This document shows, in pieces, positions 10,328-18,736 of a DNA stretch of 64,000 nucleotides (position 1 is its first letter; every line of letters begins with the position of its first letter). A program made the translations under genes and the position numbers. The notes below the pieces were generated by a model. That model did not search any database, had not been told where the DNA came from, and was given only the letters and a program-made list of their open reading frames with translations. The stretch is taken from positions 388,094 through 452,093 of the forward strand of contig CAMPYH010000001.1 in NCBI GenBank assembly GCA_946998225.1, written 5' to 3'. This DNA is from an uncultured Clostridiaceae bacterium (GTDB taxonomy: Bacteria; Bacillota; Clostridia; TANB77; CAG-508).

Positions 10328-13300
10328 ATGAAATTTATATTAAAAGAAGATTTCAAAACAAATACAAAAAACAAAAGTAGAAGGAATATATTTAATTTAT
10401 TCTTTCTATTTGCTTTTTTTATCCTTATATACATAGCATTTAAATTTTCTCTTGCACAAAAACCAGAACCAGCTCAAATTAAAGTAATAGATATTGAGAA
10501 TAACTTAAACCAAGTTATTGAAGATACATTTTTAAATGAAGTTGTTGGTGCTGGAAAATATTTAATATTACCAGAAAAAGTAGATGGTAAATATATTAAA
10601 GAATATTATGTAAAAAGTACTGAAGAGCTAGGAAATACTTCAGTAGAAACAAAAAAGATTTTAAAACCAGGAGATAAACTTTTTGCAACTAAAGAAGAAC
10701 AAAAAACTAAGATAATTGAACTTGAGACTAAATATGATTACAAAGAAATATTGAATAAAAAAGTATATAAAAAAGAAATAATTAAAAAGGTAGAGAATGA
10801 TAGGAACGATAAAAATGTAAAAACATCTGAAATAAGACTATTAGGATATGTTCCAGAAGAAGCAAATATTAAAATTTATGAAAAAGAGTTTAAAGATATT
10901 TTAAAAAAACAATACCCAGATATTTTTGAAGAAAAAAGAGATATAGATAAAATATTTGAATTTAAAATATACGAAGATCCAGAAATGTCATTTGAAGATA
11001 TTTTAAAATTAGAAGAAGTATTAAAAGAAGAAAAACCAGAAATTAAAATAACTTTTGATGGAATAAATAAAAATATTGATTACGACATTACTTCTTTAAA
11101 AGTAAAAGATGAAACTTTTAAAAGCAAATCTAAACAAGACATTTTGTTTAATTTAGATAAATCTCAAATAAATAAAGTAGATTTAGAAGATGCAGAAAAT
11201 ATAGCTGAAGTAAAAACATATATTAAATTTAACCATATACCTACAGGATATATTGTAATTAGTAATTTAAAAAAGGAAAGTAAAGAGAAAGAAAGTGGAT
11301 TAGAAATCTCTGACCCAATTATTACGCCACCATCAAGAGCAAAATTTATTCCAATACATAATGAAGGTATGAAAGCAAAACAATGGGATGGTACAAGTGT
11401 TTCAAATGGTTTTAAATTTGGAACAGGTGCAATAGATAATCCATATTTAATAACAAATGCGGAAGAACTTGCATATTTATCTGAATCAGTAAGAAATGGT
11501 AATAGATATGATAATCAATATTTCCAACTCGTAAGAGATATAGATTTAGCATCACATAATTTCACTCCAATAGGTAATGAAAGAACACCTTTTGGTGGAA
11601 ATTTTGATGGTGCAGGAAGAAGTATTGAAAATCTATATATTGAATTAAATAATTACAATCTATCATATAATGAAACGAATTCTATGGGACTTTTTGGTTT
11701 TGTAGGAGGAATTGGTGTTTCACAGGAGATTAAAAATTTCACTTTAATTAATCCACATATAAATGTGAATACACAAAATTTTATTAGATTAAGAAATATC
11801 GAAATACATTTTGGTTTAGCAGTAGGTACATTAAGAAAAGGAGTAGATGTTAAAGGCATTTCTGTAATTAATGGAAAAATTGAGGAAAGATACCAAAATA
11901 GGATGAATAATAATACATTCCTGTTTTTTGTAGGCGGGCTTGTAGGAAAAATGGAAAATGGAGGTAATATTTCAAATGTATATGTAGATGTAAATATTAA
12001 TCTAACTACTACATTTAGATCACAACAGCGTTATGCAGATAGATATGTAGCAGGTGGCATTGTTGGAAAAATGGAGGGAACAAATAATTTTCCAAAACAC
12101 ACAATATCTTCAGCGAATATTAGTTCAAATGGAATGATAGGACTGGTATTTGGAGCACAACATCAAAATGTAAATGAAAATAATCAAATATATTTAAATG
12201 ATCAATGGCAAGGTGAAAATTATAACTATATAAATCTAGATAACAGATATACACATTTTATTGTAAATGGCAGACAAATGACAGCAAGTATAAGTACTGG
12301 CATGTCGAATAATAGATTAGGAAATAATAATTCACGTATGGAATATTACCAAGGTTTAAATAAAGGTAATTATTCAAGAAACGAAGTGTCTAATCTAGAA
12401 TATTTAAATACAGGCGAAGGTAAAGATAAAGTAGAGTTCATACTTTCTAGTGGCCATTATATTTTAAATCCAAGATATGCTATTAGTATATCTGAAGTAG
12501 ATATAGATGTTTTTAAAACAAATATACAAAATAAATATACGAAAACATTTTCGGAGTTTAAGTGGTATGAAAATGGTGAAGAGAAAACAAAATATACAGG
12601 AAATACTTTTAATTTAGAGCAATTTAGTACAGAAAAAGATATCTTAATAGAAGTAATAGTTAAAGATGGTGATGGATATTATACTTACCAAAATATCCTT
12701 GTTCCCAAGGTATATTTAGATATTAAAGTAGATAAAAATAATCTGACAGCAGAAGTCAAAATTAGTGGAACAGGATTAAAATATACAAATATAAATGATT
12801 TCAATTTTTCTTGGGATAAAGAAGATGTAGTTGGTGAAAGAACAAATATTGAGGGGCAAAATAGCTATAAATATACGACAAATACTTTGGAATCAGAAAA
12901 ATATGATTTTATTGTAAAAGCAAATAATACTAAATATCCACAATTTAATAAGGAAATATTTGTAAGTTTTGTAAATAGAGATGTTATATATGTAAGTGAG
13001 CAAAGAGGTAATGATTATAATGATGGTAGATCACCTGAAAGACCTGTTCAGTATGTTTCAACTGCATATTCAAGAATCCCGGACACAGGAACTGTTAACA
13101 CAAACATTATAGTTATAATGGGAAAATGCGATAGCAATGAATCGTTTAACTCAGAAAGAAGCACACAATATAGTAAAAATGCAACATTAACAGGTAAATA
13201 CAAAAACAAAGAATATAACGGAAGATTAACATATTATTCGAGTGTAAACTCAGAAGCATATAAATATATAAATGGAGATATAGTATTTACAAATTTAGTT

Positions 13301-18736: not shown

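Follow-up and report, generated by a model that had tools for sequence, protein, structure and literature searches.

A predicted giant beta-solenoid protein encoded within a conserved cluster of SipW-type signal peptidase and McrB-like GTPase genes of an uncultured Clostridiaceae bacterium

The stretch of DNA analysed here (the window) comprises 64,000 nucleotides (nt) from an uncultured Clostridiaceae bacterium (contig CAMPYH010000001.1, positions 388,094 to 452,093) and has a G+C content of ~25%. At 10328..18736 on the plus strand, it carries one open reading frame (ORF) translated into a protein of 2802 amino acids (aa), hereafter the giant protein, which has homologs of 2500-3500 aa. This protein is a constant part of one conserved cluster of ~25 kb and ~17 genes, encoding in addition several SipW-type signal peptidases, small exported proteins, and a membrane-anchored McrB-like GTPase together with its McrC-like partner. 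All features described below are on the plus strand unless stated otherwise.

The giant protein begins with its sole hydrophobic segment, detected in a hydropathy scan at aa 18-46 (10379..10465) and ending in FSLA↓QK, with the arrow marking the putative cleavage site. It acts either as a signal peptide, in which S-x-A would be the cleavage site, or as a signal anchor. A shared [FW]xxSxA, then xK, is seen at the end of the hydrophobic segment in the closest homologs, and, judged from sequence, the giant protein may be cleaved at this site. Neither an LPXTG-type sorting signal nor a C-terminal membrane segment was found in the protein, which terminates in ...SSYDYLVIK. The original prediction, made from the DNA letters alone, of a single 2802-aa ORF with an N-terminal anchor and without LPXTG is correct as to the ORF, the presence of an N-terminal hydrophobic segment, and the missing LPXTG. 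Scanning the whole protein against Pfam gave no match at E-values up to 1, and neither an NCBIfam scan nor a PDB sequence search of the whole protein returned a significant match.

The hydrophobic segment is followed by a variable spacer rich in lysine and glutamate (K/E-rich; 17% K and 14% E) at aa 47-350 (10466..11377), where identity to homologs is 6-14% and gaps amount to 46-80% of the homolog residues. The window protein and its closest homologs have this spacer, whereas the five homologs P0007-P0011, from the branch that resembles the window protein least, lack it; in these five, the hydrophobic segment runs straight into WDG...NPY, the first folded module. The presence or absence of the spacer may reflect a difference in envelope thickness. 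In the window protein, a GLUG-type module follows at aa 351-640 (11378..12247), recognised by BLASTP to proteins annotated with PF07581 (GLUG) or PF05342 (M26_N). It recurs in multiple copies in these other giant surface proteins, with E-values down to 4e-19, while aa 340-640 alone scored 18.1 bits against the GLUG model, for which the cut-off is 20.5. The subsequent region, aa 641-890 (12248..12997), is poorly conserved (15-22% identity) and appears by eye to contain two beta-rich modules of ~85 aa each.

The central part of the giant protein is dominated by repeats. The loose motif [YF][GA][GS][GSNA][NED] matches 21 times, compared to a mean of 0.52 and a maximum of 4 in 500 residue shuffles, and the self-identity of aa 1380-1800 peaks at lags of 24, 25, 49, 50, 74, and 75 residues, reaching ~0.20 against a shuffle maximum of 0.169 over all lags. 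The repeat period is 24-26 residues with a mode of 25. Sixteen regular units of 24-26 aa occupy aa 1383-1787 (14474..15688) and share the consensus TNVNLxGGNIxN[IV][YF]GG[GSN]NxxGxxxT, five more motif-bearing units are irregularly spaced by 33-43 aa, and a few weaker units occur further upstream, giving ~21-24 units in total. The repeats first described as ~25 consecutive units of ~21 residues are thus real, though with a longer period and slightly fewer units, only 16 of them regular. At the DNA level, Tandem Repeats Finder detected no tandem array with a period near 75 nt in the gene, and P0001, a homolog from another sample with 98% identity, equals the giant protein in length and can be aligned to it with 0 gaps. 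For both reasons, repeat-number switching between strains is not supported, and the strain-level copy-number variation anticipated in the original prediction is unlikely. Between species, the number of motif matches ranges from 11 to 41 and that of regular spacings from 8 to 29.

A structural model of aa 880-2000 was obtained using AlphaFold2 with an alignment of 12 sequences, and places a beta-solenoid at aa 891-2000 (12998..16327). The mean predicted local distance difference test score (pLDDT) is 79.2, with values mostly of 85-95, some of them above 90, over the regular repeats. The model is all-beta and periodic: each 25-residue unit contributes two long strands, in strict register, [IV][YF] of the motif is where the second strand ends, and the turn consists of GG[GSN]N. 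A Foldseek search of this model against the PDB gave no significant match (best E-value 0.14), and the top ranks, all non-significant, include many beta-helical proteins, e.g., EtpA, the MpAFP antifreeze solenoid, pectate lyase, IgA1 protease, Hap, and VacA. The prediction thus gives good support to a beta-solenoid without a specific known relative, in line with the beta-helix-like fold initially suspected. With ~44 coils at 4.8 Å per coil, the solenoid would form a rod of ~20 nm. The polymorphic membrane protein (Pmp, PF02415) family, to which the repeats had been likened, was considered and rejected, as its GGA[ILV]/FxxN model was unmatched at E-values up to 1, the motif here is [IV][YF]GG[GSN]N, the C-terminus is immunoglobulin (Ig)-like, and neither the Pfam scan nor the fold matches revealed an autotransporter barrel.

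The C-terminal region, aa 2001-2802 (16328..18733), is predicted to form a chain of Ig-like beta-sandwich domains. The AlphaFold2 model of aa 1950-2802 (pLDDT 75.4) consists of successive beta-sandwiches, and Foldseek matched it to 396 PDB chains at E-values up to 0.001. The best match was to the Ig-like domains of the Enterococcus adhesin PrgB (4.6e-14), and others include the MG domains of alpha-2-macroglobulin, the pilins CfaE and CfaB, integrin legs, and cadherins. In view of these matches, the region is a generic Ig-like stalk rather than a unique one. Conservation was followed by aligning the giant protein with ten full-length homologs and calculating identity per 50-aa block. Identity is 6-17% with many gaps over aa 1-350 and 15-25% over aa 450-1000, rises to 34-43% in the first part of the solenoid and to 40-59% from aa 1750 to ~2200, and is 23-46% over the rest of the protein; blocks of the N-terminal third lie at 6-20%. 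Together, the solenoid end and the Ig-like chain make up the best-conserved part of the family; what had been seen as a unique C-terminus of ~1000 aa is an Ig-like chain of ~800 aa belonging to that part.

Several known types of surface protein resemble parts of this architecture. Beta-helical adhesins such as EtpA/FHA, Hap, IgA1 protease, and Pmp proteins likewise contain a long single-chain beta-solenoid with coils of ~20-25 residues and Gly/Asn turns. However, the fold matches to them are non-significant, Pfam repeats of the Pmp, haemagglutinin, or autotransporter type are lacking, and the giant protein is found in a Gram-positive-type context, has no TpsB or beta-barrel partner, and ends in Ig-like domains. 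Gram-positive adhesins with Ig-like stalks, such as PrgB, share the Ig-like beta-sandwich chain with the C-terminal ~800 aa of the giant protein, but here the chain lies C-terminal to the solenoid at a conserved end and is not followed by an LPXTG/sortase signal. The type of domain matches and its arrangement does not, which explains the low template modelling scores (TM-scores) of 0.24-0.29. Finally, the GLUG/M26_N giant proteins, including those of Bacteroidota such as P0016, share the module at aa 351-640, and five of them (P0014, P0016, P0024, P0031, and P0033) also share the solenoid, yet they lack the C-terminal Ig-like region of the family described here.

The distribution of the family was examined using HMMER with aa 1750-2250 against 1.84 billion representative sequences. 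This returned 293 clusters at 50% identity, 160 of them at E-values up to 1e-30, and most of the matched proteins are 2500-3500 aa long with the matching segment equally far from the C-terminus. In a scan of one genome per species, relatives were found in 263 species, all uncultured Clostridia, Bacilli, and "Tenericutes" of gut and rumen represented by metagenome-assembled genomes (MAGs) and CAG genomes, e.g., Clostridium sp. CAG:780, CAG:567, and Firmicutes CAG:321; one of the 263 genomes is a closed chromosome of 1.55 Mb. We take the record names of these relatives to correspond to the reduced-genome orders TANB77 and RF39. The giant protein family is specific to MAGs of uncultured low-GC gut Clostridia and Bacilli. 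The five distant proteins mentioned above share only the GLUG module and the solenoid with it, at ~24-27% identity. One of them, P0016 (2504 aa; positions 10001-17515 of its locus, L087), has genes for SusC/SusD and peptidase S9 next to it, a context of Bacteroidota type, and no member of the peptidase S24/S26 family (SipW) was found among its neighbours. This context indicates that the solenoid module is not tied to the SipW/McrB-like system, whereas the full-length family is.

The gene set around the giant protein recurs around homologs that are only 35-49% identical to it, as seen in four longer reference loci (L001, L003, L004, and L006). A gene encoding a K/E-rich protein of ~520-550 aa lies directly upstream of the giant gene, and a SipW-type peptidase gene lies directly downstream. 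The set further includes a degenerate peptidase paralog, exported proteins of ~200 aa, a further SipW, membrane-anchored proteins of ~190-217 aa and ~310-334 aa, a cytoplasmic protein of ~330-390 aa, the GTPase of 505-515 aa, a ~370-aa protein with the McrC N-terminal domain (DUF2357), another SipW, and a pair of 282-aa and 328-aa proteins. In the window, the block from the DUF2357 gene to the 328-aa gene is found upstream of the giant gene (3175-8320) and not downstream as in the reference loci. Housekeeping genes flank the cluster, including those for ArgRS, DprA, rpsO, PNPase, and MutS. Neighbours were counted in 46 genome loci with full 10-kb flanks. The K/E-rich upstream gene has a homolog in all 46, a SipW homolog is present in 44 with a median start just after the stop codon of the giant gene, the small exported family is present in 42, and the 328-aa gene in 38. 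The GTPase or DUF2357 gene was seen in 16 of the 46, both genes usually lying beyond the fetched 10-kb flank; in the four reference loci and in the window, both are present.

In the window, the K/E-rich upstream gene (8654..10291) ends 36 nt before the giant gene and encodes a protein of 545 aa without a hydrophobic segment and presumably with a coiled-coil fold; its homolog lies directly upstream in all four reference loci. On the other side, 53 nt downstream of the giant gene, a SipW-type (archaeal/ER-type) signal peptidase I is encoded at 18790..19467 (NSMKP and VTHRI motifs; 90.4 bits to TIGR02228, with a cut-off of 51.85 bits). A second such peptidase is encoded at 4312..4908 (GSMEP and VTHRV; 90.9 bits) and a third at 22072..22623 (GSMEP and VTHRI; 83.3 bits). 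All three keep the catalytic Ser (S-M-x-P) and His (T-H-R) motifs, but they score below the equivalog model of Bacillus subtilis SipW, with 55-76 bits against 190. The paralog at 20823..21419, with orthologs in the four reference loci, reaches 27 bits to the SipW model and reads ISPRT in place of VTHRI, and hence has lost the catalytic His, as well as FSKNE in place of GSMEP. From these substitutions, it is probably catalytically inactive and may be a chaperone-like peptidase homolog. Each cluster encodes three or four SipW-type proteins, and the SipW paralog noted next to the giant gene at the outset is one conserved in 44 of the 46 loci.

Several exported proteins have their genes in the same cluster. 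The 328-aa protein at 7334..8320 is rich in A, T, G, and V and begins with a SipW-cognate signal, STYA↓WFTSN, scoring 19.2 bits to TIGR04088 with a cut-off of 19; 8 of its 15 orthologs also match this model. Its homologs number more than 2343, all annotated as "hypothetical" and lacking any Pfam domain. A terminator-like hairpin with an 11-bp stem, the strongest of the region, lies 3' of the gene at 8355-8379, as expected for a major subunit gene, and the 328-aa protein is the probable major structural subunit. The neighbouring 282-aa protein (6367..7215) has an N-terminal membrane segment and, like the 328-aa protein, a C-terminal W(L/V)EG.D.DC motif; its orthologs adjoin the 328-aa gene in L003 and L004 and are present in 38 of the 46 full-flank loci. 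Two members of a family of small (~200 aa) exported proteins, recognised by the alignment pattern TYxxF...W.I.VN, are encoded at 5608..6234 on the minus strand and at 21421..22020. This family and the 328-aa family have the signal and the first strand in common, with an hhalign probability of 92%. Further members of the conserved set are a 217-aa exported protein with the signal end TSALFSN (22661..23314), a 334-aa membrane-anchored protein (23340..24344) with 35-43% identical orthologs in all four reference loci, and a 392-aa protein without a membrane segment (24377..25555) with orthologs in L001 and L006.

Two further ORFs lie among these genes. A 125-aa ORF with a TTG start at 5158-5535 has homologs of 200-258 aa in L001, L003, and L004, and may be a truncated or frameshifted copy or have a mis-called start. 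Inside the cluster, the minus strand at 19533-20687 codes for an acidic protein of 384 aa that contains a Rho_N/HeH-like (SAP-type) helix-hairpin motif and is conserved at this position in L001 and L006.

The locus had been taken for a SipW/TasA locus with TasA-like genes. While the exported neighbours do carry SipW-type signal peptides, the TasA assignment is unproven, as no similarity to TasA or camelysin (Peptidase_M73) was detected: 18 members gave no Pfam match, two family profiles gave no PDB match, and hhalign of the small exported family against a TasA sequence returned a probability of 0.75%. The link to SipW stands, and the locus is rather the ~17-gene cluster with a McrBC-derived GTPase pair. 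Similar to the tapA-sipW-tasA operon of B. subtilis, it combines genes for dedicated ER/archaeal-type signal peptidases with exported substrates whose signal peptides end in an aromatic-small-x-F motif (TIGR04088). In contrast to that operon, the cluster shows no TasA, camelysin, or TapA homology and has three active and one degenerate paralog instead of a single SipW, and the B. subtilis operon has no counterpart of the 2802-aa protein, the K/E-rich cytoplasmic proteins, or the McrBC-like GTPase pair.

The GTPase (515 aa; 25614..27161) resembles McrB in its Walker A (GISGTGKT), Walker B (ILDEMN), and signature (NNDD) motifs; its hydrophobic segment, aa 50-87, precedes a conserved stretch of helical appearance. 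The GTPase is the best-conserved gene product of the cluster, with 60-64% identity across loci where the giant proteins are 35-49% identical, and a mean column identity of 79%; the relatives obtained in a homolog search were all close ones, with at least 64% identity. A profile of the family matches Escherichia coli McrB with an E-value of 7e-4 across the Walker A, Walker B, and signature motifs, and the GTPase matches the PADLOC candidate model PDC-M26A with an E-value of 1.4e-36. The signature is an invariant I-N-N-D-D-S, in which NNDD can be read as NxD plus D, but this reading is ambiguous, as the same residues also align without gaps to the NTAD of E. coli McrB. An FtsL-like Pfam model was weakly matched by 2 of 12 GTPase members (E-value 0.025). 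The partner protein (369 aa; 3175..4284) contains the McrC N-terminal domain DUF2357 (PF09823, 34.1 bits with a cut-off of 23.3) and a K/E-rich C-terminal half, and Pfam revealed no nuclease domain in it. Its gene directly follows the GTPase gene in all four reference loci and is relocated upstream in the window.

This gene combination recalls CoCoPALM, a clade named in one paragraph by Bell et al. 2024 (eLife 13:RP94800; PMC11090510), the description being deferred in the available text. As given there, it combines a McrB-like GTPase with a shortened NxD signature in place of NxxD, an N-terminus with an FtsB-like transmembrane and coiled-coil part, a DUF2357 McrC homolog that usually has a coiled coil, and genes of the signal-peptidase family, and its authors linked the clade to pilus assembly (PMC11090510). 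The window cluster matches CoCoPALM in most of the defining features, sharing the McrB-like GTPase with an N-terminal membrane segment and helical stretch, the DUF2357 partner, which has a K/E-rich helical extension and lacks a nuclease match, and the tight link to signal-peptidase genes. It differs in the giant beta-solenoid protein, the exported subunit families, and the taxon, none of which is mentioned in the available text of PMC11090510. No later description of CoCoPALM was found in the literature searched.

Taken with a probability of about one half, the giant protein is a Sec-exported, SipW-processed fibrillar surface protein or adhesin docked to a CoCoPALM-type appendage; what is shown is the ORF with its repeats, the predicted folds, and the conservation of the gene neighbourhood, while export, cleavage, orientation, docking, and adhesive role are what we infer. 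The protein would be exported by the Sec pathway via its N-terminal hydrophobic segment and cut after S-L-A (aa 43), most likely by the product of the SipW-type peptidase gene directly downstream. After cleavage, the protein would be an elongated rod composed of the variable spacer, the GLUG-type module, the beta-solenoid, and the Ig-like chain. Its conserved part, the solenoid end and the Ig-like chain, may dock it to those exported proteins that carry SipW-type signals, as conserved components of the appendage or envelope, leaving the poorly conserved N-terminal modules as the exposed, ligand-facing end. The cytoplasmic part of the same machine could consist of the K/E-rich cytoplasmic proteins together with the McrB-like GTPase and its McrC partner without nuclease; these would assemble or regulate the machine rather than restrict DNA. 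For the GTPase pair, a role in envelope assembly or regulation instead of restriction is suggested by the membrane tether, the missing nuclease, and the fixed synteny. It is plausible that the giant protein is cargo or a tip adhesin of the system.

Some observations speak against this proposal. The hydrophobic segment of the giant protein ends in AFKFSLA↓QKP and not in T-Y-A-x-F, as the signals of the other putative SipW substrates do, and since the TIGR04088-type end is missing (no NCBIfam match), the motif does not indicate processing by SipW. No wall-binding, sortase, or donor-strand feature for attachment was found in the giant protein using Pfam, NCBIfam, and a motif scan. Likewise, the fold search with the solenoid gave no significant match, the absence of the spacer in P0007-P0011 fits an uncleaved anchor with a wall-spanning spacer about as well, and the adhesive role is suggested by analogy only.

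Some of the same observations would be accounted for if the segment were an uncleaved signal anchor. The giant protein would then sit on the membrane with the spacer crossing the wall and the conserved Ig-like end forming the distal functional tip, and would be cotranscribed with the cluster while being neither a SipW substrate nor attached to a fibre. This arrangement is possible but rather unlikely. It agrees with the single N-terminal hydrophobic segment in a protein without any other anchor, with the TIGR04088-type signal end missing from the giant protein, and with a spacer shared by the window protein and its closest homologs but lacking in P0007-P0011; that the window organism has a wall follows from its sortase. 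It accounts less well for the small-x-small site conserved after the hydrophobic segment in both subfamilies and for the peptidase gene directly following the giant gene in nearly all loci, and it would, by analogy only, conflict with the variable distal binding end of most adhesin classes, as the C-terminal end is conserved here. Alternatively, the giant protein could be a TapA-like nucleator or scaffold for the small exported subunits, or a secreted matrix protein, and not an adhesin. Such a function would suit a protein that co-occurs with multiple small exported proteins and with a gene, probably for the major subunit, that has its own terminator; the inactive peptidase paralog could then serve as a chaperone. 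Yet no TapA or TasA similarity was detected, nothing suggests a donor-strand element, and the size and rod-like architecture are typical of fibrillar surface proteins, making this role improbable.

The resemblance of the GTPase to McrB and to a PADLOC candidate, together with the DUF2357 partner, raises the question of whether the cluster could be a McrBC-type anti-phage defence island, in which the giant protein would be an unrelated neighbour or an abortive-infection effector. This is very unlikely, as no nuclease domain was found in the McrC homolog, PADLOC matched the GTPase only, and a membrane-anchored GTPase conserved well above the giant proteins and whose synteny with exported proteins and peptidases is fixed does not resemble mobile defence islands; moreover, the brief text defining the clade links it to pilus assembly (PMC11090510). 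A fibre gene of a prophage or tailocin is hardly credible as an origin of the giant gene. Beta-helical fibres are common in phage tailspikes, but neither the giant protein nor seven proteins of the cluster had a PHROG match, the flanks are housekeeping genes, and the chromosomal synteny is conserved across species.

Going one step further than docking to a CoCoPALM-type appendage, it could tentatively be speculated that the cluster encodes an undescribed appendage machine, in which a membrane-tethered McrB-like GTPase, activated by the nuclease-less McrC homolog, replaces the usual pilus ATPases, while SipW paralogs process the subunits and the giant protein is a dedicated cargo or spike. If true, the locus would record a restriction-enzyme motor repurposed to build or move an extracellular structure in uncultured gut bacteria with reduced genomes. 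The giant protein alone is not surprising, since giant beta-helical and Ig-stalk surface proteins are of a familiar kind. What gives it value is its constant place in a McrBC-linked envelope system, essentially undescribed so far, of abundant uncultured low-GC gut bacteria, the parts of its family being without a Pfam domain and locked into a cluster with a membrane-anchored McrB relative as the best-conserved gene. Together with the exported subunit families and the inactive peptidase paralog, it provides a parts list for experiments on a McrBC-derived motor at the envelope. On the surface of these bacteria, the giant protein is probably a major exposed antigen.

For relatives of these lineages, a link to host immune phenotypes has been drawn via another pilus cluster (PMC11680825). 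The cluster described in a paper on a TANB77 "pilin" was considered as a candidate for the one analysed here and rejected, being of the Tad type. Elsewhere in the window, a separate 1053-aa Cna_B-domain protein (38768-41929) ends in LPMSG, a hydrophobic segment, and a basic tail, and a sortase gene is present at 1281-1934, so the organism also has a conventional sortase-anchored surface protein. At the distal end of the window (62001-64000), GC skew falls to ~0 and AT skew to ~-0.15, coinciding with the sole long reverse-strand gene there, which encodes a GH57 branching enzyme (62204-63790, minus strand), nearly all other genes of the window being on the plus strand.

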